Shown: one piece after another, positions 24,756 through 54,735 of the stretch
Numbering within the stretch: position 1 is the stretch's first letter
How the letters are laid out: each line of letters begins with the position of its first letter
Source of the DNA: Clostridiaceae bacterium BRH_c20a
GTDB lineage: Bacteria; Bacillota; Peptococcia; Peptococcales; BICA1-8
NCBI GenBank assembly: GCA_000961765.1
Contig: LADT01000042.1
Location: 40,907-104,906, forward strand
Reading direction: 5' to 3'
DNA length: 64,000 nt
Program-made: the position numbers and the translations under genes
The notes under the pieces: model-generated
The model's input: the letters and a program-made list of their open reading frames with translations, nothing else
Told to the model about the DNA's origin: nothing
Databases searched by the model: none

Positions 24756-24860
24756 ACCACCTTGTTGTTTTGAATTTTAATTTTTTTAAAAAAGGAGAGG
24801 CTCCTTCTGGCAGCCCCTCCCTGGAGGTCTTAATGGCATGATTCAATTCTTGGCTTCCTA

Positions 24861-34959: not shown

Positions 34960-34999
34960 AAAAAGGCCGTTGAAGCAAAACCCTTCAACAGCCTTTTTT
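34960..34999 (-). terminator. Rho-independent terminator after the carbamate kinase gene (A/U tracts on both sides)
   Basis: Minus-strand RNA reads GGCUGUUGAAGGGUUUUGCUUCAACGGCC followed by UUUUU. Confidence 0.7.
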
Positions 35000-35003: not shown

Positions 35004-35981
35004 CTAAATTACCTCTTCGAAAATACCATTTGCATCTGGAACTATAAATGTCCCGGCTTCACCTTTCAAGGCAGCTCCTACCATTTCCAGCGATGTTATC
35101 AGAGCTTTGCCACCTGTCTTTTCTACATAATCAATTGCGGCAGCAATTTTAGGTCCCATGCTGCCTGGTGGGAAATGCCCTTCATCATAATATTTTTTTG
35201 CTTCGAAAACCGTAAGTTGAGAAAGCAGCTCCATATTAGGGCGGCCGAAATTTATAGCTACTTTTTCCACACCAGTGATAATTACCAGTAAGTCAGATTT
35301 AATTTCTTGAGCGAGGACCGAGGATGCCCAGTCTTTGTCTATAACAGCTTCGATTCCCCTAAGCTCACCTTTCCCATCGGTAATTACCGGTATCCCACCA
35401 CCACCGGCTGTAATAACAATTTTTCCTTGTTCTACAAGGTCTTTAATTACATGGTTTTCAATAATGCCTATGGGTTTGGGCGAAGGGACAACCCTGCGGT
35501 AGCCTCTGCCGCTATCTTCTACAAATACAGCATTTTTTTCCAGCTTCAGCTTATTGGCCTGTTCCTCAGAATAAAAAGGACCAATTGGCTTAGTGGGGTC
35601 TTTAAAAGCGGGATCATTACTATCGACCAGTACCTGGGTCAAGATAGTCACAACTTCTTTGTCTAATCCCCGTTGTCTTATCTTATTGGTCAATGTTCTT
35701 TGAATTAAATACCCCAACTGCCCCTGACTTTCGGCGCCACAGACATCTAAAGGCATAGGGGGAACTATATGTGCAGCTGCCTCCATCCTTAGCAGTATAT
35801 TTCCTATTTGTGGCCCGTTACCATGGGTAAGAACTACTCGATAGCCCATAGCTATTATATCAATGATACTGTCAGCACTGCTTTCAATATTAGCTAGCTT
35901 TTCCTCTAAAGTCCCCTTTTGGTTTTCCTTAGTTATGGCATTACCACCGATGGCAATAACTATTGTTGATTGTTTGGCCAT
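35004..35981 (-). CDS. arcC: Carbamate kinase
   Basis: 325 aa. Contains IVIAIGGNAI, VLTHGNGPQIGN and ITAGGGGIPV. Confidence 0.9.
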   Translation of the reverse strand: MAKQSTIVIAIGGNAITKENQKGTLEEKLANIESSADSIIDIIAMGYRVVLTHGNGPQIGNILLRMEAAAHIVPPMPLDVCGAESQGQLGYLIQRTLTNKIRQRGLDKEVVTILTQVLVDSNDPAFKDPTKPIGPFYSEEQANKLKLEKNAVFVEDSGRGYRRVVPSPKPIGIIENHVIKDLVEQGKIVITAGGGGIPVITDGKGELRGIEAVIDKDWASSVLAQEIKSDLLVIITGVEKVAINFGRPNMELLSQLTVFEAKKYYDEGHFPPGSMGPKIAAAIDYVEKTGGKALITSLEMVGAALKGEAGTFIVPDANGIFEEVI

Positions 35982-36217: not shown

Positions 36218-37834
36218 TCAGCGGAATATTAAATGAAAAACCAAGAGAAAGACTCCACTTAACCCGGTAATGAGAAGTGTAGGCGGTAAGATTTTACGCA
36301 TAACCTCACCTTCCAATCCCAGGATGCCGGTAGTAGTAGTTCCTAAGAGGACCTTGCCCGGGGCAATTACCGAACCAATGGCTCCGCCACCGGTCTGGGC
36401 CCCTAAAATAGCCGCTCTGTCTAGTCCCAAAAGTGAAGACATAGTATCCTGGAAGCTACCGAAAAGTATATTAGAGGACATATTGCTGGAGGTCATAAAA
36501 GAACCTAAAACACCGATAAAAGGGGCGATCACCGGATAAATAGCCTGGGTAGCATTAGCGGTTCCATAAGCTAAAACTACCGTCTGCCCAGTGCCATCCA
36601 TAATCTTGGACATTACAATCAAACCAATAGTAGCTATGGCGGCGGGCATAACCTTTTCCATAGTGCTCAGAAAAATTCTCCGACCGCCTCCGGTTGCAAT
36701 AGCTCCCATCTTTTTAAAAGAAAAGTAACCAATTAAGGCTGCTATTAAAAGAAAGGTGCCGGAATGGGTAAATACTGTAATTGGCGAGTACAATTGAACT
36801 GCTTTATTAACATGCCCAAAGGCTGTCAGCGTTTCCGGAAAGGCAAAACCTATCTTTAAAAAACTTAAGGCGTTTTCTACAGGTTTAATTAATAACACGA
36901 AGAGGGTAATAAAGGTTAAGGCATAATAAGGGATAAAGGCTTGATGTAAAGACATCTCCTTATCTACTTTTTCATCCCAGTCAACCTCCCTGCCTTTGCG
37001 GTCCATAATCATGCTATCTGGCTCTTGGTAGGGCTTATTGTACCAGGAAGTTTTACCCAGCAGAAATACAACAGCTAAGGCTATACAAGCCATGACGAAA
37101 TTTGCCAAGGTCGGATTGGCCTGGGAAAAGAGCATCTGTCCCCCCCCATGAATTAGAGAAATTATTAAGACCGCCGGCAGACCTGTTTTTAAACCCTTAC
37201 GACCACCGTAAAAGTAACAGATTAAAATACCTGCAGCGATATTTATGAGCCAATTAAAACCACTGGCCCATAAGGCAGTTGCCTTAATTAAAGCAGGGTC
37301 ACTTATCCCTGTTTGCAAAATCAAAGCGTCCCAAGCCACGGCTAATGTCCCAAAGGTATTGGCCCAAGCCTGACCATATAAAGAAATAATAACTGCCCAC
37401 AAGGGGGTTACCCCAATACCTACCAGTAAAGGTGCCCCAACAGCAACTGGTACACCAAAACCGGTTACCCCTTGGAGAAAGCTGACAAATACCCAGCCAA
37501 TAGCCAAGATCTGCAGCAATTCATTGGGAGAAAACTTCTGCATCCCTTTGCGAAAAGGCTCAAAAGCCTTTGCCTCGTTAGTCACTTCATAGATTAAAAT
37601 AGCTGGCAAGACAACGGTAAGAACCGCTATCCCGTTCCAGATCCCTTTGGCACTTTCCAAAGCAATTAAATCCCAGGGCGCCTTATAAAAAACAACCCCG
37701 CTTACCAGAGCGATGATAACCCCAACAGGGGCAGCCTCTGCCGCTCCCCACCGGAATTTAACCATCAAGAGCATTAACACTACAATCGGAAGTAATGCCA
37801 AAAGCCAGTAATTTAAGGTAATAGGTAGTGACAT
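36218..37834 (-). CDS. L-lactate/glycolate permease (LctP) family organic-anion transporter
   Basis: 538 aa, polytopic. Overall organisation and glycine-rich helices are typical of the LctP family. Confidence 0.75.
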   Translation of the reverse strand: MSLPITLNYWLLALLPIVVLMLLMVKFRWGAAEAAPVGVIIALVSGVVFYKAPWDLIALESAKGIWNGIAVLTVVLPAILIYEVTNEAKAFEPFRKGMQKFSPNELLQILAIGWVFVSFLQGVTGFGVPVAVGAPLLVGIGVTPLWAVIISLYGQAWANTFGTLAVAWDALILQTGISDPALIKATALWASGFNWLINIAAGILICYFYGGRKGLKTGLPAVLIISLIHGGGQMLFSQANPTLANFVMACIALAVVFLLGKTSWYNKPYQEPDSMIMDRKGREVDWDEKVDKEMSLHQAFIPYYALTFITLFVLLIKPVENALSFLKIGFAFPETLTAFGHVNKAVQLYSPITVFTHSGTFLLIAALIGYFSFKKMGAIATGGGRRIFLSTMEKVMPAAIATIGLIVMSKIMDGTGQTVVLAYGTANATQAIYPVIAPFIGVLGSFMTSSNMSSNILFGSFQDTMSSLLGLDRAAILGAQTGGGAIGSVIAPGKVLLGTTTTGILGLEGEVMRKILPPTLLITGLSGVFLLVFHLIFR

Positions 37835-37844: not shown

Positions 37845-39284
37845 CTAAAGACCTTCATTTTTCATAAAAGCCCGCAATGCTTCCAAAAATATTTTCATGG
37901 GCGGTCTAACAATACCGGCACCTACCTGACCGATACCCGGTTTTTTATGAGCTATACCTGTATTAATAATTGGTAAAATTCCTGTTTCGACAACCTTGCT
38001 AATATCTATGCCGGTAGCCACCCCTTGGAAGTTTAGGTTAGGCATAGGCAAGTTGGCGTTACGGGTAACTGTGATTTCTCCCATACTCTCGGAATATTTG
38101 ATAGCCGCACTAACTGAGCCGGCTCCCACGAAGTTAACAACTGCCGGGGCACAGCCCATTGCAAAACCACCAATACCGATACATTCCACAATAGTGCTAT
38201 CACCCATATCGGGGTTAGCATCTTCCTCAGTATAGCCCGGGAAATATAAACCTTCCGGCATATTAACCGGTGCTGTAAACCAGCGGGAACCTAAACCACT
38301 GACATTGATACCAAATTCCACACCATTTCTGCTCATAGCTGTTACCACAGTGCTGTGAGGAATATCTCTAGCTGAATCCATTATGGCCTTTGAGGCTACC
38401 ATAGCCAAATTAAGGAAAAATTGATCATTTTTCTTAGCGATAAACTCTACTATATCTTTGGCATCTTCCCGGCCGGCTACCTCTTGGGATAATTCGCCAC
38501 TAATAGTACGATAAAAGAGCAGGCTTGCTGCTACGTTACGTTGATGCATTTCATCACCCATAGCTAGAGCTTGGGCTATAATGTTTTTAAGGTTAACCCC
38601 GCCGGCTTTTTTAATGGCTTTATCCAGCACAGGAGCTAAGACCTGTTCCAACCATTTTAAACGGGTAATAACCTTTTCGCCATTAGCGCCAAAACGCATA
38701 ACTTCGCCCAAACCTTCATTAATTGTACAATAGCCATAATTGCCATAAGTTTCATTTTTCACCACGAAGACAGGCATTGAATATGAAATCATCCCGGTCA
38801 TCGGGCCAACAGCACCGTGATTATGATTAGGACTATATTCTATTTTTCCTTGTTCCATTAAAGCTACTGCTTCTTCTTCAGTTTGGGCCAAGCCCTCATA
38901 GCGGATAGCTCCAATAAAGGCTCCTTGCATAGGTCCACACATGTCTCGCCAAGCCACAGGAGGTCCTGCATGAAAGATAGAATTTTTCTTCATTTCCGGA
39001 AAAACCTCATGAGCTGGTTTTACACCAATTAATATCGGCTGACTGGCCATTATTCTTTCCACAGCTATTTTATTTGCCTGTTCAACCCGGGTAAGGCAAT
39101 TTTCATCCTTTTCCATTAACTGCAGATGAAAAAGCAAATCAACAATCTCGGCATCACCCTGAGCAGGCGGTCTCCAGTCTAAGCCTATAAAGGGTGTATT
39201 TGTATCACTAAAGGCCTTAGTGAAGTTATCTAGGCCAATATTTACAACTCTCAGTTCTTCGGGTACATTTTTTAATTCAGTCAC
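37845..39284 (-). CDS. DUF1116 (YlbE-like) protein, copy 1
   Basis: 479 aa. Paralog of 40862-42301, sharing VVNIGLD, HAGPP, VGPMTG, NPDMGDS and MPNLNF. Each copy follows an FdrA-like gene, as with E. coli fdrA-ylbE. Confidence 0.75.
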   Translation of the reverse strand: MTELKNVPEELRVVNIGLDNFTKAFSDTNTPFIGLDWRPPAQGDAEIVDLLFHLQLMEKDENCLTRVEQANKIAVERIMASQPILIGVKPAHEVFPEMKKNSIFHAGPPVAWRDMCGPMQGAFIGAIRYEGLAQTEEEAVALMEQGKIEYSPNHNHGAVGPMTGMISYSMPVFVVKNETYGNYGYCTINEGLGEVMRFGANGEKVITRLKWLEQVLAPVLDKAIKKAGGVNLKNIIAQALAMGDEMHQRNVAASLLFYRTISGELSQEVAGREDAKDIVEFIAKKNDQFFLNLAMVASKAIMDSARDIPHSTVVTAMSRNGVEFGINVSGLGSRWFTAPVNMPEGLYFPGYTEEDANPDMGDSTIVECIGIGGFAMGCAPAVVNFVGAGSVSAAIKYSESMGEITVTRNANLPMPNLNFQGVATGIDISKVVETGILPIINTGIAHKKPGIGQVGAGIVRPPMKIFLEALRAFMKNEGL

Positions 39285-39299: not shown

Positions 39300-40865
39300 T
39301 TATATATTTTTAATTAGATCACCCGCTAGTTTGGCAGCATGGGCATTGGAAGGCATAACGATAACTCCCGCCGCTACTAACTTTGCTACCTGTTCTTTGC
39401 GGGAGGGACTATCATTATCTGTACCACAAACAGAAGTAACCAGACTAACACCCAGGCTTCCCGCTTTTTCTGCTTTAGCTTTGTTTATTATTTGCACAAC
39501 CTCTCCCGCTGGATCAGGGTGGGAACCATAGCCGATAACCAAGTCAAAAATCACAACTGCTGCGTCCGGATCAAGTATCTCCCGGTAGAGCCTGTTATTT
39601 TTCATAGTGGGGTCAATCATAGGATGGGGTTTGCCCACAGTAAATTCGTCTTCTCCCATATCCAAAAAAGTGTGTTTTTGACTTTTTTGATTATCAGGTA
39701 AAGAATGCATGCCTTTTAAGGGAATATTTGAATATATGTCTTCTTGAGGAAGAAGGGTACCCAGGATATTCATAGTTTCATAGCAGAGACTGCCCCCGCC
39801 AAAAATACCCCGCAAATATTTTCCTTTTTCTACCTGTTTTACCCCTTTTGCTAAAAGGGCATTATAGGCAGCAGCATCACTTATAGATACTTTATCCATT
39901 TCCAATTTAGCCGTTAGGGAGTTAACAGCTAGGGTTGCAGCTTCCTCTAAAGTGCTAGTTACTAGTGCTCCTGCAGTTTTTTCAGGAGTATAGTCTTCAC
40001 AACCGGCATAATTAATGATAAAAGGTTTAGAAGAATCCTTTATTACACTGCATATTTTTTCCCTAACCTGCTCTCCTGGTGGTTTAGAAATCAGAACAAT
40101 AACCTGGGTTTGGGGGTCATTGAGAAGATACTTTAATCCAGCCAAGGCAGTAATTCCGCCAATTACATCTTTTAGATCCCGTCCACCGGTACCAATAGCC
40201 TGACTAATTCCCTGACCTAAAGCATCGATAAGGCAAGTTACCTCTTGAATTCCCGTACCTGAAGCCCCCACAATACCGATACTCCCCGTACTGACTTTAT
40301 TTGCAAAAGCCAAAGGTATACCATTTAAAATGGCTGTTCCACAATCAGGTCCCATGACCATCAAGCCTCTGCTCTGTGCCATTTTCTTTAAACGGAGCTC
40401 GTCTTCTAAGGAAATATTGTCACTGTAGAGCATAACATTAAGACCTTTGCTTAAAGCTTTAGCCGCTTCATACTTGGCATAGTCGCCAGCCACGGAGATT
40501 AAAGCCAGATTAAGCTCAGCATCTTCCAGGAGGGCGTGCTCCAATGTATTAATTATTCTAGTATTGTCACCAGCATCTTTGCTTTTGACAGAGGCTGTTA
40601 GCATTTCATTAATTTTAGCCATTGCTGATGCTAAAACATCTTCATTTGCAGAACTCACAGCTATAGCTAAATCATCGGAGTTGGCCTGGGCTAATTCGTC
40701 GGTATATAAGCCCGCAACCTTAAACAGATCTTTATTTCTCTCCGTAGCCATCATTGCTGAAGCCACCGTTACACCTTCTAATTGGCTGGCTTGGCTGGAA
40801 ATTTTCATTAGAAATACAGAGTCCCGGTAAGTGTTCTTAACAATTAAACTTTTAATAAAACTCAT
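39300..40865 (-). CDS. fdrA: FdrA-like protein (succinyl-CoA-synthetase-alpha-like CoA-ligase fold), copy 1
   Basis: 521 aa. Contains GPDCGTA, VGASGTGIQE, IGTGGRDL and GKPHPMIDP. Confidence 0.8.
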   Translation of the reverse strand: MSFIKSLIVKNTYRDSVFLMKISSQASQLEGVTVASAMMATERNKDLFKVAGLYTDELAQANSDDLAIAVSSANEDVLASAMAKINEMLTASVKSKDAGDNTRIINTLEHALLEDAELNLALISVAGDYAKYEAAKALSKGLNVMLYSDNISLEDELRLKKMAQSRGLMVMGPDCGTAILNGIPLAFANKVSTGSIGIVGASGTGIQEVTCLIDALGQGISQAIGTGGRDLKDVIGGITALAGLKYLLNDPQTQVIVLISKPPGEQVREKICSVIKDSSKPFIINYAGCEDYTPEKTAGALVTSTLEEAATLAVNSLTAKLEMDKVSISDAAAYNALLAKGVKQVEKGKYLRGIFGGGSLCYETMNILGTLLPQEDIYSNIPLKGMHSLPDNQKSQKHTFLDMGEDEFTVGKPHPMIDPTMKNNRLYREILDPDAAVVIFDLVIGYGSHPDPAGEVVQIINKAKAEKAGSLGVSLVTSVCGTDNDSPSRKEQVAKLVAAGVIVMPSNAHAAKLAGDLIKNI

Positions 40866-42301
40866 GGTTTTCCCCCTTTCCCTTTAGAATTCTCCATATT
40901 TTCAGCAAAGGCCTGAAAAGCCCTAATAAATACATCCTTGGGTGCTCTAGCCATACCGGCTCCGATCATACCCACTCCCGGCTCCTTGTGGGAAATAGCT
41001 GTGTTGATGATAGGCTCAATTCCACTTTCCACCACTTTTAAAATATCAATTCCGGTAGGTGTACCCCGAAAATTCAAGTTAGGCATAATAAACTGCCGGT
41101 TTTCGGCAAGGGTTATTTCATACATTTCATGGGTGTTAGCAAAGGCATCATAAGCGGTACCTGTTCCTAAGAAGCGAATTATCGCCGGTGCCGTAGCCAT
41201 TGCAAAACCACCCAAGCTATAGGTTTCCATAATGGCACTATCACCCATGTCAGGATTAGCGTCTTCTTGAGAGTACCCTGAAAAATACAGGCCATTGATG
41301 CGATTAGCAGGTGCAGTAAACCACTGGTCTCCTAAACCGCTGACTTTTATGCCAAATTCGTAGCCATTCCTGGCCATAATAGTAACCAAGGTACTTCCCG
41401 GAATATTATGAGCAGCCTCCAAGGTAGCCTTACCAGCTGCCATAGCTAGATTTAAGAAAATCTGATCATTATTGATGGATATAAATTTCAAAATCCTAAT
41501 TAGCCTTTGCTGGTCAGTACAAACCTCAGCTAATAAGGGCGAGAGGTAACGGACATACAGTGCGGCAGTAGCAGCATTGCGCATATGCAATTCATCACCC
41601 ATAGTCACCGCCTGAGAAATAACCACCTTCAGATTTAAACCCCCTGAAAGTTGAATAGCCTTTTTCAATTCAGGAGCAAGTTCATTTTCTATCCACTTTA
41701 ACCTATCTACTACTTCTTGGGAATTAGCACCAAATCTTAAGACCTTACCCATCCCTTCATTGATAGTAGTGTAGCTGAAATTACCATAGGTCTTGTTTTC
41801 TACAACATAGAGGGGCATCGAATAGGAAGTAATACCTGTCATCGGACCAACTGTATGAAAATCATTACAGGAAGCAAATTTAATTTTGCCCTCTTTAAGG
41901 AGATTTTCGGCCTCCTGGTCATCTTTAGCCAGGCCTTCGTACTTCAAGGCCGCAAAGACACCGGCCCGCATAGGTCCGCACATGTTTTCCCAGCCTACAG
42001 GAGGGCCGGCATGGAGTAAAGTGTATTTGTCCATACCAGAAATAACCTCATGGGCCGGCAAAATATCCATTAACACGGGCTGGCCATTTTGCACTATTTC
42101 AATAGCCTTTTCATTAGCCTCGCTAATTCGGTCTTTACTGCTTTCCAATTTAGTTAATAGGTTAAGCATTTTTTTATCCCCAGCCGGTGGCCGCCAGCTA
42201 AGATTTATGTTGGGTACATTTTGTTCCTCCAGATCTTGAGGAAAAATATCTAAACCAATATTTACCACCTGTAATTCGCTGTTTAAAAGATTGTTCTTCA
42301 T
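40862..42301 (-). CDS. DUF1116 (YlbE-like) protein, copy 2
   Basis: 479 aa. 4-nt start/stop overlaps with both flanking fdrA-like genes. Confidence 0.75.
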   Translation of the reverse strand: MKNNLLNSELQVVNIGLDIFPQDLEEQNVPNINLSWRPPAGDKKMLNLLTKLESSKDRISEANEKAIEIVQNGQPVLMDILPAHEVISGMDKYTLLHAGPPVGWENMCGPMRAGVFAALKYEGLAKDDQEAENLLKEGKIKFASCNDFHTVGPMTGITSYSMPLYVVENKTYGNFSYTTINEGMGKVLRFGANSQEVVDRLKWIENELAPELKKAIQLSGGLNLKVVISQAVTMGDELHMRNAATAALYVRYLSPLLAEVCTDQQRLIRILKFISINNDQIFLNLAMAAGKATLEAAHNIPGSTLVTIMARNGYEFGIKVSGLGDQWFTAPANRINGLYFSGYSQEDANPDMGDSAIMETYSLGGFAMATAPAIIRFLGTGTAYDAFANTHEMYEITLAENRQFIMPNLNFRGTPTGIDILKVVESGIEPIINTAISHKEPGVGMIGAGMARAPKDVFIRAFQAFAENMENSKGKGGKP

Positions 42302-43869
42302 TTACCTCCCCCTTTATCTGTTAAATTTTGCACAATTTCCACCGCTAAACGGGCAGCCTCAGCATTAGAGTTCATAACAATAACACCGGCACTTTCCAGT
42401 TTTTCTATCTGCCCCTCATAGTCTTGGGGGTCATCTTTGGTACCACATAGGGAAGCAATAAAAGAGATGTGTCTTTCTTCCTGGAGGGCTATTTCCTGAG
42501 CCTTTTTAATTTTTGGCACCAACGCCCCAGCAGGGTCACTATGGGAACCATATCCCAGCACAACATCTAATAAAATGACCGCAGTCTCAGGGTCCTTGGC
42601 TTCCACCAGGATTTTTTCAGCTCTCAGACTAGGGTCAATCATGGGATGGGGTCTTCCTTGGGTAAACTCATCATCTCCTAAGTCAATAAACGTATTTTCC
42701 CGGGACTTATCTGAAGCACCTAGTTTTAACTGTGGTTTTAAAGGCACATTAGAATAAACATCACCGATGAAGCTCTGGGAAATTAAAAGAGCTTCATAGC
42801 AGAGGGTACCTCCCGAGAACAAACCCCTGATATATTTTTGCTCGGCATTAAACTTTTCACACTCACCATTAGCGATTTCCCTTAGTTCAAAGCATTCTTC
42901 ATTCAGACTTTTTTCAATATTAGCACTGCCCTTTGAAACTGCCAAAGCTAAAGCTGCTGTTTCTTCCAGAGTGTGGCCAAAATAAATATCCTTCTTCGCC
43001 ATAGTTAAAATACTGCCGCCTAAGAAACAGACCACAACAGGTTTCTCTATACTACTGATAGTTTCGATAATTTTCTTTTCTACCATAGGGGAGGGTGGTT
43101 TGGAAACCAAGACAATAACCTTGGTTTTCTCATCCTCGGTCAACATCTTAATCCCTTGCAGCATGGTACTACCGCCCACCGCCTCTTTTAAGTCCCTGCC
43201 CCCTGTACCGATGGCATGGGAAATACCTCCACCTTTTTCTGAAATCAAACAGGCTATTTCTTGCAGTCCAGTCCCCGAGGCAGCAACTATGCCGATATCA
43301 CCGTTTTTAACAACATTAGCAAAGCCAATACCCTTGCCGTTGATGTAGGCTGTACCACAATCAGGACCCATCACCAAAAGACCTTTTTTAGCACTTTTCT
43401 CTTTAAGCTCAATCTCTTCTTCCAGGGATACATTATCACTGAATAGAAAAACATTGAGCCCATTATCCAGAGCTTTATGGGCTTCTCGAGCTGCATATTC
43501 ACCAGGTATAGAAATAATAACTAGATTAGCCTCCGGCAATTTTTCTAAAGCTTTAGCTAAACTCCTAATGGGTACATTAGACCGTTCGACATCTGAGCCC
43601 GGTTTATTTAAAGCCTTGTCGATTTCTTCCAATACCTTTTGCTGACATTTTTCATCCAAACATTTAATACAAATAAGCATATCGGAAGATGAAGCCTTTT
43701 CACCTTCAGCATTTAATAGGTCAGCCTGCCTTAAAATTTCTTTGTTATTATCGGTAGCCATCATCACGGCTGCTTCTTCTACTTCTTCCAGAACAGACAC
43801 TTTTTGCGTAATGGACATTAATGTTACTGAATCATAGTAAGTGTTTAACTTAACTATATTAGTTAGCAT
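42298..43869 (-). CDS. fdrA: FdrA-like protein, copy 2
   Basis: Start trimmed to MLTNIVKLNTYYDSV (RBS AAAAGGAGGG). Contains GPDCGTA, VAASGTGLQE, IGTGGRDL and GRPHPMIDP. Confidence 0.8.
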   Translation of the reverse strand: MLTNIVKLNTYYDSVTLMSITQKVSVLEEVEEAAVMMATDNNKEILRQADLLNAEGEKASSSDMLICIKCLDEKCQQKVLEEIDKALNKPGSDVERSNVPIRSLAKALEKLPEANLVIISIPGEYAAREAHKALDNGLNVFLFSDNVSLEEEIELKEKSAKKGLLVMGPDCGTAYINGKGIGFANVVKNGDIGIVAASGTGLQEIACLISEKGGGISHAIGTGGRDLKEAVGGSTMLQGIKMLTEDEKTKVIVLVSKPPSPMVEKKIIETISSIEKPVVVCFLGGSILTMAKKDIYFGHTLEETAALALAVSKGSANIEKSLNEECFELREIANGECEKFNAEQKYIRGLFSGGTLCYEALLISQSFIGDVYSNVPLKPQLKLGASDKSRENTFIDLGDDEFTQGRPHPMIDPSLRAEKILVEAKDPETAVILLDVVLGYGSHSDPAGALVPKIKKAQEIALQEERHISFIASLCGTKDDPQDYEGQIEKLESAGVIVMNSNAEAARLAVEIVQNLTDKGGGK

Positions 43870-44018
43870 GTCATCCCTCCTTTTGTTAATCATCGGGATT
43901 AAGAGTTAATCCCATAAGCTTGCCTATTATCTAAAATTGTAGCACGACACTAATCCTCAGTCATTGTCAGTGGAATCAATTTTCGCCTTGGTTTGTTGTG
44001 CACATTGTACAAAAGGAA

Positions 44019-44274: not shown

Positions 44275-45948
44275 CTATTCTGTTTCATTGTTTAAAAGCC
44301 CCTTTAGTTTCAAGGCCAACTGCAGTTTGAGTAAAGTATTATAATCATTTAAATCCATATTTAATATTTCTTTAATCTTGTCTAAGCGATAGGTAAAGGT
44401 ATTGCGGTGAATAAACATCTCCTTGGCAGCCTCAGAATAATTAAAATTACAATGAAAATAGGTTTCTAAGGTTTTTACCAGATCCATTTTATTATCTTTG
44501 TCAAAAAGCATTAATTTTTCAATACTTTCATGATAAATTTCTTTAAGCTTAGCTTTATCCAGTGAGTTTAAGAGGTGTTCAACAAAAAAATCTTCAAAAT
44601 AGAGCAGACAATCCTTCTTTTGTTGCATCTTAGCCCCTAATTTGATTGCCTCTACAGCATTAGCATAGCTTTCATGGACCAACAGGGCATTTTTAATGGT
44701 ACCCACTCCGATGGAAACAGTTAACCCACTGATATTTTTATAAATATGAGACTTTATGTCATAGGCTAACTGTTTAGTAATTTCCCGACTTCTCTCCTTT
44801 GGATTGTGTTGCAGGATAATAACTATCTGGTCACTCTGACTAAAGGTTACCGCTTTAAGATTATTATTGGCTAATATTTCATCTACCAGGGCTGAAAGCT
44901 TTCTTTTCAACTTCTGGGCACGGAAATCACTGCCTTCCATTTCTTCCAAATAAATCTTTGTAAAATGGTCTACATCCAAGACCATACAAATATAAAAGGA
45001 ACTTGGATTGATTCCATAAGCGGTACCTCTTCTAGCTAAAATTTCCCGGGATTTTATATTGCCTGATAAATAATCACTAAAAAAGTCTACTTTTAGTCTA
45101 TTGCGCATTTCGGAAAAGGCCGTATTTTTTAACAACTCTAAGCCCACTACGGTAGCTGCATGTTCAATAGCGACAATATCCGGCTCCTCTAGTTCCTCCA
45201 CATTTTGCCAGATGGTAATATGTCCGTACAGTTTCTTTTCGGACATAACCAGATAAATTATCCGCTTAATCTCATGGTCATCAATAAAAATTTTGTCCTC
45301 TAGGTATTTCCTGTTTCCGTTGATAATCTCCTGCATAGTCTGATTATCAATAGGACTTTCAAAAATCAAAAGTTTACTTAAGGGAATTTGTGCTTCAGGA
45401 TGATTATACAAGCTTAAGCTTTTCCAGTTGGCATCAGAAATGGAAATGCTATTATTGACAAAGCTCGACAATAACTCGGCAATCTCATTGAGTCCGCCGC
45501 CCTTTAAAGCCAGTTTGGTAAACCAGTCATGTATTTGGTGGGACCTTTCAATTTTCCTGGCTTGACAGACTAATATTTCTTTCATCATCTCATTCATGAT
45601 TTCTGCAATATTATCTTCAAAGGGGATTTCTATCAAGGGTAAACCTTCCTGATCGGCCAAATCAATCATGTGTTGAGGAATGGTTCTAAAAAACCTTTTC
45701 ACTTTAATGCCTAAACCGGCACATTTTTTTTCGTTTAGATCGAGAATAAGCTGTTTTTGTTCATTAATATCATTACGAATAAAATATCCTGTGGTCACAA
45801 TAAACTGATTTTCCTTGGTCCAGTTAACAAAATCGGGGGCATCCATCTGATTGACCGAGCTGATCATTCTGTCTACGCCTCTGCTTCCGCCTATTACTTT
45901 ACACCCTTTTAATGCTTCCAACTTTAAGGCCTCAGACACCTTGATCAT
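44275..45948 (-). CDS. PucR-family transcriptional regulator
   Basis: 557 aa. N-terminal PucR-type domain, a GGDEF-like middle region, and a C-terminal HTH (YSEAAKEMFIHRNTFTYRLDKIKEIL). Confidence 0.85.
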   Translation of the reverse strand: MIKVSEALKLEALKGCKVIGGSRGVDRMISSVNQMDAPDFVNWTKENQFIVTTGYFIRNDINEQKQLILDLNEKKCAGLGIKVKRFFRTIPQHMIDLADQEGLPLIEIPFEDNIAEIMNEMMKEILVCQARKIERSHQIHDWFTKLALKGGGLNEIAELLSSFVNNSISISDANWKSLSLYNHPEAQIPLSKLLIFESPIDNQTMQEIINGNRKYLEDKIFIDDHEIKRIIYLVMSEKKLYGHITIWQNVEELEEPDIVAIEHAATVVGLELLKNTAFSEMRNRLKVDFFSDYLSGNIKSREILARRGTAYGINPSSFYICMVLDVDHFTKIYLEEMEGSDFRAQKLKRKLSALVDEILANNNLKAVTFSQSDQIVIILQHNPKERSREITKQLAYDIKSHIYKNISGLTVSIGVGTIKNALLVHESYANAVEAIKLGAKMQQKKDCLLYFEDFFVEHLLNSLDKAKLKEIYHESIEKLMLFDKDNKMDLVKTLETYFHCNFNYSEAAKEMFIHRNTFTYRLDKIKEILNMDLNDYNTLLKLQLALKLKGLLNNETE

Positions 45949-45981: not shown

Positions 45982-46194
45982 CTAACCTCCGGCGAGAACT
46001 GGAAGGACCTGAATGAAATCATCTTCCTCCAGCTCAAAATCTAAATCATTTACTATTCCAACATTGTTTCTTAATACCAGCACATCATTAAAGGAAACCT
46101 CCAATAAGTCTAATAGTCCCTTTAGGTTCATGGGGCCTTCAATATCTAAATCCTTCCTGTATGGATGCAAAACTTTTATTTTCAGCTGCCTCAC
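45982..46194 (-). CDS. Small MoaD/ThiS-like beta-grasp protein with C-terminal Gly-Gly
   Basis: 70 aa ending ...IQVLPVLAGG, the same C-terminal signature as 6261-6548. Confidence 0.55.
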   Translation of the reverse strand: MRQLKIKVLHPYRKDLDIEGPMNLKGLLDLLEVSFNDVLVLRNNVGIVNDLDFELEEDDFIQVLPVLAGG

Positions 46195-46212
46195 CCCATT
46201 TTTTACTATTAA

Positions 46213-47124
46213 CTATCCCAAATATTTTCTTGCTAAAAAATCCAATCCTAAATAAACGCCAGTCAGAAAGTCCTTACCTGAGGAATGACCAATAACAGCA
46301 ATAACAGGTAAGCAATCCCTGAATTGTTCCAGGTTATCTTGGTTTAAAGCTTTTATAAGCAGGTATATGGGCTGAGAGTAATAGTTTTGAAAAAAGTAAG
46401 CAATAAATTCAAAACTAATTTCCGTAGTAGAGGCTCTAGCCAAATGTAAAATTTCATCTTTTATACTTTCTACTATTCTACTATATTTTTCTTGTACTGT
46501 AAGTATGGTTAAAAAGCCTAACAAAAGATCATCTCCACTGGGTGTCAAGCCTATACCCAAACCCAATAACTGATCTATCCCTTTAATTATGAGGGTTTTA
46601 TCCTGATTTAGAAAGCCCTGCTTAATTTCTTCAGCAGCTGCGGATATTTTTTGCGCTAAAGCCTTCTCAATAGCAGTTAAGGCATTACTCTGGTCCCAAG
46701 CTATCAGAAAATGATAAAGATTTACCGGGCTTTCCCGTAGAAAATCCTTCATAGCCTTTAGATAATCAGAATAACATATGCTGTGTTTTTTTATCTCAAT
46801 TTTAGTTGAAAACTCTTGGGCACCTGCTAGGGAAAATGTATTTTCCCCGATTTGTATGTTTTGGTCCACAAGGCTTAAAACGGCTGTCTCGCCGGGTTTA
46901 AGGGATAAAAGAGTAAAATCATCAATTTCTGGTGAGCATAAACAGCTCATGGGTGTCTTGGCAACTTTTGCATTTTGCAGGGTTAAGAGTGGGCCCATAC
47001 GGGTTTTAATATTACAGGAAGAATTAAAGACCGAATGAACGGCACCAAATAGTCCACTAGAAGAATTCAATAAAAGCTTTGCCATTGGTGAACTTATTTC
47101 TGTAATTGGATAAACTCTGCCCAT
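46213..47124 (-). CDS. DUF2877 (YlbF-like) protein
   Basis: 303 aa. The motif GLGIGLTPSGDDLLLGFL is the signature I associate with DUF2877, the third component of the E. coli fdrA-ylbE-ylbF set. Confidence 0.65.
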   Translation of the reverse strand: MGRVYPITEISSPMAKLLLNSSSGLFGAVHSVFNSSCNIKTRMGPLLTLQNAKVAKTPMSCLCSPEIDDFTLLSLKPGETAVLSLVDQNIQIGENTFSLAGAQEFSTKIEIKKHSICYSDYLKAMKDFLRESPVNLYHFLIAWDQSNALTAIEKALAQKISAAAEEIKQGFLNQDKTLIIKGIDQLLGLGIGLTPSGDDLLLGFLTILTVQEKYSRIVESIKDEILHLARASTTEISFEFIAYFFQNYYSQPIYLLIKALNQDNLEQFRDCLPVIAVIGHSSGKDFLTGVYLGLDFLARKYLG

Positions 47125-47179
47125 AAGCCCTTTCCTCTCATTTAGTTTTAAAAAAAGCGCCTTAAAAGACGCTTTTTTT

Positions 47180-48325
47180 TTAGAAGAACCTTTTTTCTAT
47201 AATCTGGGGACTACGAAAAATATCAGAAGGGTTATTACACCCTAGTAAAGTGAATTGAGCTTTGTTGCCTTCTTGGATGCTAAATCTTTTTACATCAACA
47301 AGGCCCTTGCCGTTTTGGATCAGCATTTGAAAAATATCTGCCTGTTCATCGTCACTATAAAAACGCTGTACATAAGTTAGTAACTGTGCTACTTCAAACA
47401 CATTACCATTACCTAAGGGATTAAATTGGTCCTGTATATTATCAGTACCCAAGCTTACATTAACTCCCGCTAGCAGCAGTTTCTTCACTTCGGTGAGCCG
47501 TCGAGTGGCGATGGCTGTAGGGCAGACAATAACATTAATACCCGCTTTCTTGATGCCTTCAATATCTTTGCTAGCCTCCTCTTCAGAGATAACCGGCAAA
47601 GAACAGCAGTGAATAGCATTTACCCGTCCCTGGTAGCCCTCATTTATAGTCTTTTCGATTAAATAGGGCAGCATATGATCATCAGGTCTACCTGTTTCAT
47701 CTGCATGAAAATCAATGTCCACATCAAAGGCTTTGCCTAGTGCAAAAATAGTATCTATGTGCTCCTTTTTCCTGTCGGCATCCATGCTTGTATGACCGCC
47801 AACGCTGTCAGCACCCATACGTAAGGCTTCTTCAAGGAGCTCTTTAGTTTCCGGGAACCTATTAAAGCCTTCCTGAGAGAAAGCAGTAACGTGGATATCC
47901 ATCATATCCCGGACTTCTGCTTTTAGTTCTAATACAGCCTCAATACCCTTTAAGCCAACCAGAGGGTCCACATCCACATTGGTTCTGATGCCGATCACAC
48001 CGTTTTGTCTAGACATCCTGATAACTTCCCGGGCCCGTTCCTTAATATCCTCTTTGGTAAAGGTTTCTTTTAGCTCCCTGACCCAGCCGGCCCGTACAGG
48101 GGGTGCTTCATCCTGGTACGGTTTTCGTCCAATAATTAAGGATTTATCAATATGGGCATGGGCATTAATTACACCGCTAATCACTATCTTTCCTTGGGCA
48201 TCAAAAACATCACACTGGTTAATGTCAATATTAGCGGCTATCTTTTTGATAATATTATTTTCCACATAAATATCCTGCAGTGTATTACCATCTAGGAGAT
48301 TAGCATTTTTAATAAGCTTGTTCAT
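47180..48325 (-). CDS. Amidohydrolase of the cytosine-deaminase / AtzC (N-isopropylammelide aminohydrolase) / creatinine-deaminase type
   Basis: Start trimmed to MNKLIKNANLL (RBS AGGAGTG). Contains GVINAHAHIDKS, RTNVDVD, VTAFSQEGF, DVDIDFHADE, AIHCCS and SLGTDNIQDQFNPLGNGN. Confidence 0.8.
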   Translation of the reverse strand: MNKLIKNANLLDGNTLQDIYVENNIIKKIAANIDINQCDVFDAQGKIVISGVINAHAHIDKSLIIGRKPYQDEAPPVRAGWVRELKETFTKEDIKERAREVIRMSRQNGVIGIRTNVDVDPLVGLKGIEAVLELKAEVRDMMDIHVTAFSQEGFNRFPETKELLEEALRMGADSVGGHTSMDADRKKEHIDTIFALGKAFDVDIDFHADETGRPDDHMLPYLIEKTINEGYQGRVNAIHCCSLPVISEEEASKDIEGIKKAGINVIVCPTAIATRRLTEVKKLLLAGVNVSLGTDNIQDQFNPLGNGNVFEVAQLLTYVQRFYSDDEQADIFQMLIQNGKGLVDVKRFSIQEGNKAQFTLLGCNNPSDIFRSPQIIEKRFF

Positions 48326-48335
48326 TAAGTCACTC

Positions 48336-49436
48336 CTATTCGGCCTTAACAATAACAGCCAAGAGATTTGCCCCCAGAGGACCTTGGTGCTCGGCTCCTG
48401 CAGAAGCTAAAATCATCGGATCACCGATTAGGGAAGCTACTACAGCATTAGCTACCGCTTTAGCCATAATCCCGGAATAGCCGGCTAAAAAGTCAGTTTT
48501 AATGGTATTTCTCCTGCCTCTGACTGCCCCTACGGAATCAGCCCCGGCGTTAACAAAGATATTAACAACTCTCTGCGCTTCTTCTTTGGAAGGCATACAG
48601 TCAAATTTAAGGCCAGCACTTCTTAAGGCATCTTTAGCTCCTTCTACATCTAGCTGATCCTTCATTACACCGCTGCCCACATAATATTTACTGTTAGATT
48701 TTGAAGAATTACCCATAAGAACTATACGGCAAGCTACCTGTTCGCCACCGGCAGAAGTAGATGCCTTATTTGAATAAAATCCCCAGTTGCTGCAGATATC
48801 TTCCTGCTTTAAAGCTGCAAAGTCAACTTCTCCTAAAGCCACAGCCACACCTAGGGCTGCAGCTCCTTTAGCCAGGCTGCTGGCTTTTCCTAAATCTTCC
48901 GAAACCACGGCTTGGCCCCTGTTTTTAGCATCATTAACCCTAGCGGCAGTCATAGCCGGTAGTTTTACTTCTACACAATGGACATCTTCAACATTATCAA
49001 TACCGGCATCCTGTATTGCCTCTTTAACAGCTTCAGCCACTAATCGCACCTGCTCTAAGGTCCCGTATTCTTCAGGTTTAAGTACCGGTGTGTTGGTAAT
49101 TCCTAAGGCAAAACACTTTTTAGTGTTATCCCCTTTTTCGGCTAGAACCTTCTTGGTAAATACTGTATAATGAGGACTCATAAGACCACCGGTCAAACCG
49201 ATCATCAACATAGGAATTCTATCAAAAACCTCTTGCCTGGTAATTCCCAGTTTTTCAGATAATAGAACCTGAAAAGCCAGAGTGGCATATCCCCTGTCAT
49301 GTCCATCTCCTTCAGTCTGAGCGATAATAGCTGCAATTTCTTCGGGAATAATTTCACCCTGATTAATCATTCTTTCCAACTCAGACACATCACCGGGATG
49401 AGCCATAGGCAATTTGTAAACATTAACATCAAACAT
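48336..49436 (-). CDS. Ring-opening amidohydrolase family protein (cyanuric acid hydrolase AtzD/TrzD / barbiturase family), divergent
   Basis: Start trimmed to MFDVNVYKLP (RBS GGAGGTG). Contains VHCVEVKLPAMT, ASTSAGGE and VRGRRNT, with the C-terminal SAGAEHQGP matching the family signature GGAEHQGP. Confidence 0.8.
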   Translation of the reverse strand: MFDVNVYKLPMAHPGDVSELERMINQGEIIPEEIAAIIAQTEGDGHDRGYATLAFQVLLSEKLGITRQEVFDRIPMLMIGLTGGLMSPHYTVFTKKVLAEKGDNTKKCFALGITNTPVLKPEEYGTLEQVRLVAEAVKEAIQDAGIDNVEDVHCVEVKLPAMTAARVNDAKNRGQAVVSEDLGKASSLAKGAAALGVAVALGEVDFAALKQEDICSNWGFYSNKASTSAGGEQVACRIVLMGNSSKSNSKYYVGSGVMKDQLDVEGAKDALRSAGLKFDCMPSKEEAQRVVNIFVNAGADSVGAVRGRRNTIKTDFLAGYSGIMAKAVANAVVASLIGDPMILASAGAEHQGPLGANLLAVIVKAE

Positions 49437-49575
49437 CAACTGCACCTCCAGAGCTTTTGTTTATATTATTCGTCACAAATATACCATACTACAACCCTTT
49501 GGTCATTGTAATTTATAACCCAAGGAAACCGTAAGCTATTGTGCATCTTGCCCAACTTGGTGCCATTTTAACAAC

Positions 49576-50148
49576 TTATTCTCTGCTGCCAGGTTTATAG
49601 ATGGGTATTCCTTGTTTGCATAAGGGGCAATCATTAGGGTCATAATTATTCATACTTATTGTTACCAAGGAGAAATACGGAACTGTCAGTTTAGCCAAAC
49701 CATTACTACGGTCAACTATAGAGCCTACAGCTAAAACTTCACCTCCCAATCCTTCCACTAAATCAATAACTTCCTGAGAGGAAAGTCCTGTTGTGATGAC
49801 ATCCTCGACCACTAAAACCTTTTGACCAGGTTTAATACTAAACATTCTTCTTAGCTGAGCTTTCCCCTCCACTTTTTCAGTGAAAATACCGGGGACCCCC
49901 AAATAACGAGCAACTTCATAAGCGACTATGATGCCTCCCATGGCAGGGCCAATGACGATATCCGGTTTATCTTGGCAAAAGTGCTCGGCAAGGGTAGTAC
50001 ACACCTTTTCAGATAAATCAGGTTCTTTTAATAGTTGTGCGCACTGTATATACACCTCACTATGTAAGCCGGAACTAAATTTGAAGTGCCCTTCTTTAAA
50101 AGCATCTACCTTTTTCAGCATTTCTAATACTTCATTGGAATCTAACAT
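49576..50148 (-). CDS. pyrE: Orotate phosphoribosyltransferase
   Basis: Start trimmed to MLDSNEVLEMLKK (RBS AGAGGAGA). Contains the PRPP loop VLVVEDVITTGLSS. Confidence 0.85.
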   Translation of the reverse strand: MLDSNEVLEMLKKVDAFKEGHFKFSSGLHSEVYIQCAQLLKEPDLSEKVCTTLAEHFCQDKPDIVIGPAMGGIIVAYEVARYLGVPGIFTEKVEGKAQLRRMFSIKPGQKVLVVEDVITTGLSSQEVIDLVEGLGGEVLAVGSIVDRSNGLAKLTVPYFSLVTISMNNYDPNDCPLCKQGIPIYKPGSRE

Positions 50149-50188
50149 AATTATCCATCTCCTCTTTGTAAATTTTTTATGCTTTAAC

Positions 50189-50296
50189 AAAAAAACCTTT
50201 TATCCAATCGCATAAGACTCCCTCTTCTATAAGCGGGAGATAAGGAATTAGGATAAGTCTCCCTAAGTTCAGGTGGAGTCAAAACTCCATCTGAAC
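50189..50296 (-). promoter_or_regulatory. Structured pyrF-pyrE spacer: a strong hairpin (50267-50296) plus a second composite stem ending in U7 (50189-50245); possible internal attenuator/terminator
   Basis: Minus-strand RNA reads GUUCAGAUGGAGUUUUGACUCCACCUGAAC, then CCUUAUCUCCC...GGGAGUCUUAUGCGAUUGGAUAAAAGG-UUUUUUU. Alternative GGGAG/CUCCC pairings are possible. Confidence 0.3.
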
Positions 50297-50306
50297 AAGT
50301 TCGGCT

Positions 50307-51017: not shown

Positions 51018-51075
51018 CTTCTCTCTCCTTTCTTTTGCTTAAGGGATATTTTGAATGTCAGTGTGATGACTAATG

Positions 51076-51113
51076 GGTAAGTCTGCACGACAGTGCTACA
51101 GTGCTACAGAAAA
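51076..51113 (-). repeat. 38-bp element TTTTCTGTAGCACTGTAGCACTGTCGTGCAGACTTACC (minus-strand reading); inverted partner of 54651-54688
   Basis: By direct comparison, 34/38 positions are identical to the plus-strand sequence at 54651-54688. Confidence 0.85.
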
Positions 51114-51185
51114 TGACAGGTTAAGGTTTCGCTTCGCTAGGCTGAGGTTAAGAAGAACCATAAGCAAGTCTGGACACTGAGCACT

Positions 51186-51260
51186 AATCACCAGTCACTA
51201 ATAGACCATAGACCATCGACTATAGACTATAGACTTTACTAGTCACCAGTCACCAGTCAC
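51186..51260. repeat. Short tandem repeats: (GACCATA/GACTATA)x5 at 51204-51238 and (AGTCACC)x3 at 51239-51260
   Basis: Read directly from the sequence. They lie immediately downstream of the carB stop. Confidence 0.8.
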
Positions 51261-51264
51261 TTTA

Positions 51265-54453: not shown

Positions 54454-54472
54454 GTGCTTTCTCCTTTCATGC

Positions 54473-54688: not shown

Positions 54689-54735
54689 TGTGAGCCGTCA
54701 CACTAACATGCAGTTTATCCTATAAGCCTACACAC

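Follow-up and report, generated by a model that had tools for sequence, protein, structure and literature searches.

The 64,000-nucleotide stretch analysed here (the window; positions 40,907 to 104,906 of contig LADT01000042.1 of Clostridiaceae bacterium BRH_c20a) encodes a predicted ring-opening amidohydrolase, named CAHL in this study, which has the Toblerone fold of the cyanuric acid hydrolases (CAHs) and barbiturase and keeps only one of their three Ser-Lys dyads. Its gene lies beside that of an AtzC/CodA-like deaminase and near genes for homologues of the AllFGH carbamoyltransferase and a carbamate kinase. We propose that CAHL opens an asymmetric cyclic ureide and that the acyl-urea product is phosphorolysed to carbamoyl phosphate, from which ATP would then be made; our own estimate of the probability of this reading is roughly 55%.

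The hydrolase and its active site

The mechanical open reading frame (ORF) of CAHL covers positions 48336-49445 of the minus strand with GTG as the first start. The likely start is the ATG at 49436, which GGAGG precedes by 8 nt and which gives the 366 residues stated by an earlier note on this DNA, made from the sequence alone. The gene as called independently on a metagenome contig likewise encodes 366 aa, and the homologues are 364-367 aa long. Membership in the CAH/barbiturase superfamily (Toblerone, PF09663/TIGR02714) is far beyond chance, as judged from the full-length profile match (PF09663, E 4.3e-123, 411 bits, Pfam; TIGR02714, 334 bits against a cut-off of 153) and the three-repeat fold. 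The AlphaFold2 model, computed from a 30-sequence alignment, has a predicted local distance difference test score of 90.9 and a predicted template modelling (TM) score of 0.92, and it superposes on the Moorella CAH (6BUM) with TM 0.92-0.94 at 45% identity. The same enzyme is the closest solved relative by HMMER (E 8e-91), followed by TrzD (5T13, E 4.5e-84), AtzD (4BVQ, E 1e-67) and the barbiturase of Rhodococcus erythropolis (5HWE, E 2e-61); the corresponding Foldseek identities are 45, 41, 36 and approximately 34%. The NCBIfam CAH equivalog NF052395 gives 351.6 bits, under its cut-off of 360.

Active-site roles were taken as defined for AtzD and the Azorhizobium CAH (PMC3758960, PMC4051656) and transferred by HMMER alignments to Moorella CAH, TrzD, AtzD and barbiturase. 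The three dyads of CAHs, in AtzD numbering Lys42/Ser85, Lys162/Ser233 and Lys296/Ser344, correspond in CAHL to Gln40/Ile79, Lys158/Ser228 and Asn296/Ser345 (numbering of the 366-aa protein). Both residues of the domain A dyad are thus gone, GKTEGNG reading AQTEGDG and SGGTEG reading IGLTGG, and the domain C dyad has lost its Lys (AKAEA to VNAGA) and retained its Ser. The domain B dyad is complete together with its partner Glu232. The oxygen-binding Arg is kept in domains A (Arg48) and C (Arg309) and has become Lys190 in domain B (SRGASALG to AKGAAALG). The Glu residues beside the two lost Lys residues are replaced as well, by Gly83 in domain A and Gly298 in domain C; the latter position is held in AtzD by Glu298, the sole side-chain ligand of the structural metal. 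Since each lost Lys has also lost its adjoining Glu, the changes look like coordinated remodelling rather than decay. The earlier note had already listed the hallmarks VEVKLP, ASTSAGGE, VRGRRNT and GAEHQGP, all of which are present, and had read the IGLTGG and VNAGA segments as the loss of two of the three dyads. That reading held in the alignments, in which only Lys158/Ser228 stays intact and conservation of all dyads was not seen. Gln40, Lys190, Gly83, Gly298 and a broken C-terminal CAH motif are changes beyond those it named.

The residue pattern is neither CAH-like nor barbiturase-like. The diagnostic C-terminal motif of CAHs, S-G-G-X-E-X-Q-G-P-X-G-G-G-P (PMC9118981), reads S-A-G-A-E-H-Q-G-P-L-G-A-N-L in CAHL, so that the EHQGP loop is shared and the remainder is changed. 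Of the two Arg residues also expected of a CAH, aligned with R194 and R324 of AtzD (PMC9118981, citing Seffernick 2012), the first is Lys190 and only the second, Arg309, is kept. Barbiturase is described by an Asn at the AtzD-195 position, Val-Ser after the domain C Ser and three dyads (PMC3758960). In our alignment it retains all three dyads and the metal-ligand Glu and has Asn for the domain B Arg, whereas CAHL has Lys190, Ala346-Gly347 and two incomplete dyads.

What is left is the set to which catalysis has been ascribed. Cho et al. (2014; PMC4051656) assigned the nucleophile to the domain B dyad Ser226/Lys156 with its Glu, and noted that this central dyad is the only one conserved throughout the family. 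CAHL and its relatives keep exactly this set and three cationic residues, for which reason an active single-dyad hydrolase is proposed. That CAHL could instead be a catalytically dead relative, working as a binding protein, sensor or scaffold, is hardly credible: the metal ligand is missing, and so are four of the counterparts of the six dyad residues or of their partners, but Ser228, Lys158, Glu232, Arg48, Arg309, Ser345 and many Gly and Pro residues are invariant among sequences 56-80% identical to CAHL, and its translation is apparently coupled to that of an intact deaminase.

The same pattern recurs far beyond the window. A nine-position signature that includes Gln40, Lys190 and Asn296 was found in 118 of the 120 best matches (56-93% identity) drawn from 5.8 billion clustered proteins, and all twelve signature positions are invariant in the 30-sequence alignment. 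Among 88 members of this one-dyad clade (from 87 fetched loci), Gln40, Ile79, Asn296 and Gly298 are kept in every one and the full 12-residue signature in 83; of the other five, four show Ala in place of Gly83 (with Lys190 changed to Arg as well in one of them) and the fifth is truncated at Arg48. The nine canonical sequences compared, six paralogues from the loci and three references, carry KRSEKRSEKERS. Scanned exhaustively with HMMER, 1.84 billion representatives at 50% identity yielded a small family of 936 at E <= 1e-3, and three of 80 full-length ones had the exact signature. In a rough neighbour-joining tree the clade is monophyletic and apart from the Moorella/TrzD/AtzD and barbiturase groups, and its sister lineages likewise lack dyad A.

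Carriers of the clade belong to Bacillota, Mycoplasmatota, Proteobacteria and Cyanobacteria. Among them are Bacillota metagenome-assembled genomes (MAGs), Natronincola, Oscillospiraceae, Erysipelotrichaceae, Liberiplasma, Izimaplasma and Paenibacillus/Cohnella, as well as Pseudolabrys, Casimicrobiaceae, further Proteobacteria and many filamentous Cyanobacteria. The nearest genome is a Bacillota MAG (L005, 89% identity), and a metagenome from rock porewater contains the identical string of genes.

Gene neighbourhoods of the one-dyad clade

All genes of the region lie on the minus strand (Table 1). The partners named in the earlier note, an AtzC/CodA-type amidohydrolase, AllH/DUF2877 and a beta-grasp ORF ending in Gly-Gly, are present, and further along the same strand the other two AllFGH subunit families (each in two copies) and carbamate kinase are encoded together with them.

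Table 1. Features of the CAHL gene region, in positions of the window
Feature	Position	Strand	Remarks
Promoter-like site, ATGACC-17 nt-TATATT with TG	49478..49506	-	Consensus match only; in the 139-nt gap between pyrE and CAHL
CAHL, predicted one-dyad Toblerone-fold ring-opening amidohydrolase	48336..49436	-	366 aa; PF09663, structure alignments, fold match
AtzC/CodA-like mononuclear metallo-deaminase (AMH390)	47180..48325	-	381 aa from ATG 48325
AllH (DUF2877/YlbF) homologue, subunit of AllFGH-type carbamoyltransferase	46213..47124	-	PF11392, 82 bits
ThiS/MoaD-like 70-aa ORF ending in Gly-Gly (...VLAGG)	45982..46194	-	PF02597, 25.1 bits (cut-off 22.5)
PucR-family regulator	44275..45948	-	PucR, GGDEF_2 and HTH_30 domains
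AllF (FdrA) homologue, copy 1	42298..43893	-	NF004760, 551.6 bits (cut-off 433); 39% to E. coli AllF
AllG (YlbE/DUF1116) homologue, copy 1	40862..42301	-	PF06545, 294.5 bits; 48% to E. coli AllG
AllF homologue, copy 2	39300..40865	-	NF004760, 486.5 bits; 44% to copy 1
AllG homologue, copy 2	37845..39284	-	PF06545, 305.8 bits; 50% to E. coli AllG
LctP-family (lactate/glycolate permease) transporter	36218..37834	-	PF02652, 247.8 bits; under the TIGR00795 cut-off
Carbamate kinase	35004..35981	-	TIGR00746, 420 bits (cut-off 358); 39% to E. coli AllK
Intrinsic-terminator-like hairpin	34960..34998	-	16 pairs and T run; directly after carbamate kinase

With TTG 48352, the mechanical start, the deaminase ORF would run into the CAHL gene; the ATG start leaves 10 nt between the two, and the independent gene call gives the same length. 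The best match in PDB is AtzC (4CQB, E 2.6e-51), followed by cytosine deaminases. In an alignment of 36 orthologues with the window protein, H65, H67, K70, Q160, H216, D218, E219, H248, D304 and N305 are invariant (37/37). The AtzC metal ligands His60, His62, His217 and Asp303 and, in addition, His249, Lys65, Gln160 and Asn304 all have their equivalents here (H65, H67, H216, D304, H248, K70, Q160 and N305, respectively), and two AtzC residues do not: H-A-D-E stands where AtzC has H-I-H-D with its His219, and Phe310 replaces Trp309, which in AtzC stacks on the substrate. The H-A-D-E stretch resembles the motif of CodA, which we take to be H-C-D-E. Glu217 of CodA is the equivalent of AtzC His219 (PMC4577212). 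The protein is not a typical CodA either: the best cytosine deaminase model of NCBIfam gives 193.9 bits against a cut-off of 438, and Asp314 is replaced by Asn305.

The AllH homologue shares 29% identity with the C-terminal portion of its E. coli counterpart. Of all minus-strand sites between 33.5 and 51.3 kb that resemble a terminator, the hairpin after carbamate kinase is much the strongest, the others having 5-7 pairs, and no terminator was predicted in the gap between pyrE and CAHL. The tight gene spacing and the terminator prediction suggest that the CAHL operon is co-transcribed, and co-regulation of the hydrolase operon with the allF block may be envisaged. An Rfam scan of the window found nothing that reaches the gathering score, thus no riboswitch or other known RNA. 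The adjacent pyrE is the last gene of a pyrB-pyrC-carA-carB-pyrF-pyrE operon; as a functional clue this adjacency was judged coincidental, being met in one of 18 Bacillota-group loci.

The ThiS-like ORF belongs to the beta-grasp family by its profile match, and the earlier note placed it in the operon. Its presence there stands, but as a part of the system it recurs only in the closest relative: beyond the window it was found in L005 (63% identity) and was absent from approximately 85 other loci, where the small ORFs are AllG N-terminal pieces or fragments, and a large-database search with the protein returned only the identical sequence. No E1-like adenylyltransferase or sulfur acceptor was met among the approximately 50 window ORFs scanned with Pfam, a scan not aimed at such a protein. 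The ORF was rejected as a system component, being lineage-specific and probably outside the core of the system.

Synteny was examined in 80 genome loci and twelve Pfam-annotated contigs searched with the window proteins, and the counts are restricted to loci flanked by 4 kb or more on either side of the gene. In the Bacillota group (18 loci), AllG is encoded nearby in 17 (adjacent in 12), AllF in 15, the deaminase in 17 (always adjacent), AllH in 12 (by BLAST), LctP in 14 and PucR in 12. The typical order is PucR, AllH, AllF, AllG, LctP, AllG, hydrolase, deaminase, and carbamate kinase, a TAXI or DctP tripartite ATP-independent periplasmic (TRAP) system and an FmdA and Vut_1 pair are often present too. 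Of the 16 other loci, mostly of Proteobacteria, 14 have AllG (adjacent in 9), 12 have AllF, eight carbamate kinase and five the deaminase. Taken together, 31 of these 34 loci have AllG nearby, and in 21 it lies no more than 400 bp from the hydrolase gene, which supports the view that the association of the hydrolase with a carbamoyl-transfer/ATP module is conserved synteny and not a local accident. The TRAP binding proteins gave no clue to the ligand.

The remaining two groups are organised differently. None of the 14 cyanobacterial loci has AllF or AllG nearby and one has the deaminase. The partner here, in 11 loci, is a paralogue resembling orotate phosphoribosyltransferase (OPRT), divergent (TIGR01367, 110 bits, cut-off 150) and encoded close upstream of the hydrolase gene (positions 9323-9883 in L002; also L027, L029, L030 and L032). 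A HbpS/GlcG-like protein is encoded directly downstream, an NMT1-type ABC transporter is also present, and six cyanobacterial loci have a canonical CAH paralogue less than 10 kb from the clade member. In the aerobic Bacillales Paenibacillus/Cohnella, AllF and AllG are likewise missing from all five loci; the deaminase is always adjacent, PucR is always present, and an NMT1 ABC transporter is encoded too. AllFG are replaced by a RutB/BiuH-like cysteine hydrolase, whose gene lies directly beside the hydrolase-deaminase pair in at least three loci (L040, L081, L083). Enzymes of the RutB/BiuH family act on ureido-acyl compounds.

Canonical CAHs served as a control. All 120 best matches to the biochemically characterised Moorella CAH carry the canonical signature, and three matches from anaerobes were examined at the level of the locus: Zhaonella formicivorans (94% to the Moorella enzyme), Alkaliphilus crotonatoxidans and a Logan contig. 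The three clusters all encode PucR, a 412-417-aa protein, AllH, AllF, AllG, the CAH, a permease of the xanthine/uracil family and carbamate kinase. The coupling is therefore general in anaerobes and not peculiar to the one-dyad clade; the link of ring opening to the ATP-yielding module drawn in the earlier note stands as conserved synteny, but not as a special trait of the divergent enzyme. The product of canonical CAHs, carboxybiuret/biuret, is itself an acyl-urea, which supports the view that AllFGH homologues take ring-opened acyl-ureas. The 412-417-aa protein has no Pfam match (L090, 4835-6073; L091, 11137-12390; L092, 8728-9972; copies 43-59% identical), and no homologue of it was found in the window or the one-dyad loci.

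The 76-kb Logan contig (L093, ERR14027448_35) holds a canonical and a one-dyad cluster approximately 12 kb apart. In the one-dyad cluster the hydrolase, deaminase, TAXI-TRAP and LctP genes are directly followed by E. coli-like allC, allE and allD (17201-20341, 58-61% identity), with no allantoinase gene nearby. Three AllF/AllG sets are encoded on this contig, one of them as a 1000-aa AllF-AllG fusion.

These data bear on the simplest alternative, that the clade comprises ordinary CAHs hydrolysing cyanurate by the central dyad alone, the cluster being an anaerobic cyanurate pathway. The 45% identity to Moorella CAH as the best PDB match, the equivalog score barely under the cut-off, the retained nucleophile dyad and cationic residues, the cluster type shared with canonical CAHs and the AtzC-like partner, reminiscent of the step from ammelide to cyanurate, all agree with it. 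Yet substitution of any of the six dyad residues of AtzD gave inactive protein (PMC3758960), and in the Azorhizobium CAH the S79A and K40A changes lowered the activity approximately 10^7- and 10^4-fold, respectively (PMC4051656, Table 2). CAHL departs from CAHs also at the R194 position, in the C-terminal motif and in the Glu metal ligand, and the co-occurrence of canonical and one-dyad enzymes on the Logan contig and in the six cyanobacterial loci argues that the two presumably have different substrates. We therefore regard this alternative as quite improbable; the clade-wide fixation of the changes supports the view that its members are not ordinary CAHs.

Proposed substrate and pathway

CAHL is thus seen as a putative cyclic-amide (ureide) hydrolase with a single catalytic set, in which Ser228 would be the nucleophile, Lys158 the base and Glu232 its partner. 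The two other pseudo-symmetric sites would form a non-catalytic, partly hydrophobic wall (Gln40, Ile79 and Gly83; Asn296 and Gly298), and Arg48, Lys190 and Arg309 would remain as three cationic oxygen-binding residues. From this arrangement we infer a six-membered 2,4-dioxo ureide with three oxygen-bearing substituents and without threefold symmetry as the substrate. Five steps can be envisaged. The AtzC/CodA-like deaminase, which many proteobacterial loci do without and which is for that reason placed first, would turn an amino-substituted precursor into the oxo ring. CAHL would then open the ring to a carboxylate-terminated acyl-urea, the AllF/AllG/AllH carbamoyltransferase would phosphorolyse the latter to carbamoyl phosphate and an amide, carbamate kinase would make ATP from carbamoyl phosphate, and the LctP-family permease would export the residual small acid or amide. 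In the aerobic Bacillales the RutB/BiuH-like enzyme may hydrolyse the acyl-urea instead. Of this picture, the fold, the residue pattern with its conservation, the neighbourhoods and the intact catalytic residues of each partner were observed, and the substrate, the order of steps, phosphorolysis and co-transcription are our interpretation.

Our best guess is a barbiturate-type ring derived from 6-aminouracil-type precursors, with ureidomalonate as the product; barbiturase (EC 3.5.2.1), itself an asymmetric version of the CAH active site, forms this very acyl-urea, and it is of the kind proposed for CAHL. A carboxylated ring of the orotate or oxonate type is an alternative, in favour of which speak the TRAP transporters, an LctP-type exporter that would suit oxamate and, in Cyanobacteria, the OPRT-like partner. 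The structure of the Frankia class V orphan of the family, PDB 5HY0, was deposited under the title 'orotic acid hydrolase'; the accompanying paper reportedly identified no substrate. Uracil, which would give ureidoacrylate, is a further candidate.

Five-membered rings are candidates as well. The substrate might be N-methylhydantoin derived from creatinine, the CodA-like partner being a creatinine deaminase, or a ring of the parabanate/allantoin type that would feed oxalurate to AllFGH. CodA-type enzymes are known as creatinine deaminases, the isochorismatase-family partner in Bacillales also resembles relatives of N-carbamoylsarcosine amidase (3EEF, E 8.6e-18), L002 has a creatininase-family gene 9 kb upstream, L093 has AllC, AllE and AllD without an allantoinase beside the cluster, and oxamate, an analogue of lactate and pyruvate, would suit an LctP-family transporter. 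All characterised family members, however, act on six-membered trioxo rings, and the three cationic residues and the backbone geometry better fit a 2,4,6-substituted six-membered ring. Moreover, N-carbamoylsarcosine is no acyl-urea and the association with AllC, AllE and AllD was met in one of approximately 87 loci. Parabanate hydrolyses spontaneously to oxalurate at neutral pH (PMC5703782). A five-membered ring is on balance unlikely.

Several points weigh against the proposed opening of an asymmetric ureide followed by phosphorolysis. First, to our knowledge no activity of AllFGH beyond oxalurate and oxamate has been shown. The complex was identified in 2024 as oxamate carbamoyltransferase, the E. 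coli enzyme interconverting oxalurate with oxamate and carbamoyl phosphate, and among AllFGH-type enzymes only that of E. coli has been assayed (PMC11326118). Second, barbiturase has all three dyads; dyad loss, from which the earlier note suggested barbiturate or something new, is therefore no barbiturase signature, and the residue pattern by itself does not point to barbiturate. Third, the retention of all three cationic residues is compatible with a cyanurate-like trioxo substrate. Fourth, with AllC, AllE and AllD encoded in L093, the AllFG there could serve the ordinary oxalurate route. Fifth, clade members without AllFG nearby, in Cyanobacteria and Paenibacillus/Cohnella, mean that phosphorolysis is not obligatory for the clade. 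Finally, in the window a 381-nt gap and the PucR gene stand between the hydrolase operon and allF.

The last two points would also be expected if the neighbourhood were misleading, that is, if the hydrolase-deaminase pair and the AllFGH/kinase genes served different substrates and were merely co-located in catabolic islands for nitrogen heterocycles. Amidohydrolases, TRAP transporters and carbamoylases are indeed densely packed in the window. Against this stand the frequency and closeness of AllG in the Bacillota-group and other loci given above and the recurrence of the same adjacency with canonical CAHs; as AllG-family genes are in general expected to be few per genome, chance is unlikely to account for it, and we consider this explanation improbable.

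Relation to known systems and implications

CAHs (AtzD, TrzD and the Moorella enzyme; EC 3.5.2.15) share with CAHL the fold, the length, the central Ser-Lys-Glu set, the Arg of domains A and C, the domain C Ser and, in anaerobes, the context of AllH-AllF-AllG and carbamate kinase. They differ in dyad A, the dyad C Lys, the metal-ligand Glu, the domain B Arg and the C-terminal motif. Family members of unassigned function have been reported before (PMC4051656, PMC3758960). These Group/class V orphans (Frankia 5HY0, Azorhizobium AZC_3203, Bacillus alcalophilus and B. cellulosilyticus) resemble CAHL in having no assigned substrate, and AZC_3203 was inactive on both cyanurate and barbiturate (PMC3758960). 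The Frankia protein is only approximately 33% identical to CAHL. The 'Bacillus subgroup' of Cho et al. (2014) has Lys at the domain B Arg188 (PMC4051656), which matches Lys190 of CAHL in a comparison made by description only. Unlike the case of CAHL, no genomic link to AllFGH or carbamate kinase is given in the orphan reports.

The AtzC-AtzD steps of s-triazine degradation, from N-isopropylammelide via cyanurate to carboxybiuret, similarly bring together a deaminase and a ring opener of the types found side by side in the window. The window differs in the CodA-type H-x-D-E in place of H-I-H-D, in Phe for Trp309 and in the single dyad, and it continues with AllFGH and carbamate kinase where the s-triazine pathway uses the hydrolytic AtzE/AtzF or BiuH. 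The four components of the E. coli AllFGH and AllK system, which belongs to the anaerobic branch of allantoin degradation, all have homologues in the window (AllF 37-39%, AllG 48-50%, AllH 29% and AllK 39% identity), and the proposed logic, from acyl-urea phosphorolysis via carbamoyl phosphate to ATP, is the same. Upstream, however, a Toblerone hydrolase and a deaminase stand in the window instead of AllB, AllC, AllE and AllD, the acyl-urea substrate is probably different, and there are two paralogues each of AllF and AllG. Each AllG protein of the window begins with a segment of approximately 55 residues that matches the last 50 residues of E. coli AllF (NF004760 positions 505-555). Elsewhere this segment is a separate 56-62-aa ORF between allF and allG (L001, 4024-4197; L087, 7802-7990), and it appears to be a domain that migrates between subunits.

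Other catabolic genes are found in the window. Positions 19452-27788 hold a DctPQM TRAP system with four further genes or pairs: a dihydroorotase/hydantoinase-type amidohydrolase (21548-22912), an Asp/Glu-racemase-like protein, an M20 enzyme of the N-carbamoyl-amino-acid/allantoate amidohydrolase type (19452-20717) and a PyrD/PyrK-like pair (26063-27788). The set looks like one for reductive orotate or hydantoin utilisation; the biosynthetic pyr operon (49576-58016) is without pyrD and pyrK. An FmdA/AmdA-family amidase is paired with Vut_1 (YhhQ-like, queuosine-precursor transporter family) at 12699-14387, and such a pair lies less than 10 kb from the one-dyad cluster in several Bacillota (L001, L013, L017, L019, L024, L045 and L086). 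Three genes of the tungsten aldehyde:ferredoxin oxidoreductase family are present (6538-8391, 10245-12104 and 28120-30021), one of which adjoins a TRZ/ATZ/SsnA-type deaminase gene (30015-31442) of a type recurring beside AllG in other loci. The gene of OrtB, the 2-amino-4-oxopentanoate thiolase beta subunit (826 bits), has in its vicinity those of a class-III aminotransferase and a member of the ornithine cyclodeaminase family (module at 15328-16755 and 17062-19455), which suggests an ornithine fermentation module unrelated to the hydrolase. The reductive urate pathway (XdhD, YgfK, SsnA, YgeW, YgeX, YgeY) was set aside, as its enzymes are different and the pyridoxal-phosphate enzyme of the window is OrtB and not YgeX.

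The earlier note took the combination of deamination, ring opening and phosphorolysis to be undescribed. In the searchable literature no paper was found that links the Toblerone family to AllFGH or carbamate kinase, defines the one-dyad clade or describes its conserved pairing with an AtzC/CodA-like deaminase; in the papers of 2025 on the reductive breakdown of urate, neither family is mentioned. No substrate has been assigned to the clade there, and earlier testing of its members may exist beyond the texts searched. The conservation of the central dyad alone, on the other hand, was already reported by Cho et al. (2014; PMC4051656). A metagenomic study of 2025 found allFGH and allK adjoining biuret/triuret genes in nitrifiers, without a CAH (PMC12625717).

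A precise residue signature and a wide distribution can now be given for the one-dyad clade, and the metabolic role proposed for it is testable. In a wider and more tentative scheme, to which we give somewhat less than even odds, anaerobes and some Proteobacteria would possess undescribed ATP-yielding routes of 'ureide fermentation' that combine Toblerone ring opening of resonance-stabilised N-heterocycles with AllFGH phosphorolysis, the three-dyad enzymes acting on cyanurate and the one-dyad enzymes on another natural ring without a known direct hydrolase (barbiturate-, orotate- or oxonate-like), and the AtzC/AtzD steps of herbicide degradation would be derived from such pairs. Cultured carriers of one or the other cluster type are Natronincola ferrireducens, Liberiplasma polymorphum, Zhaonella formicivorans and Alkaliphilus crotonatoxidans. 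The coupling of Toblerone enzymes to AllFGH and carbamate kinase suggests that ring ureides, among them cyanuric acid, an industrial pollutant and natural product, may be fermentable with substrate-level phosphorylation, and if true, it extends the only known role of oxamate carbamoyltransferase. The pairing of hydrolase and deaminase offers a natural origin for the AtzC-AtzD steps of the atrazine pathway.

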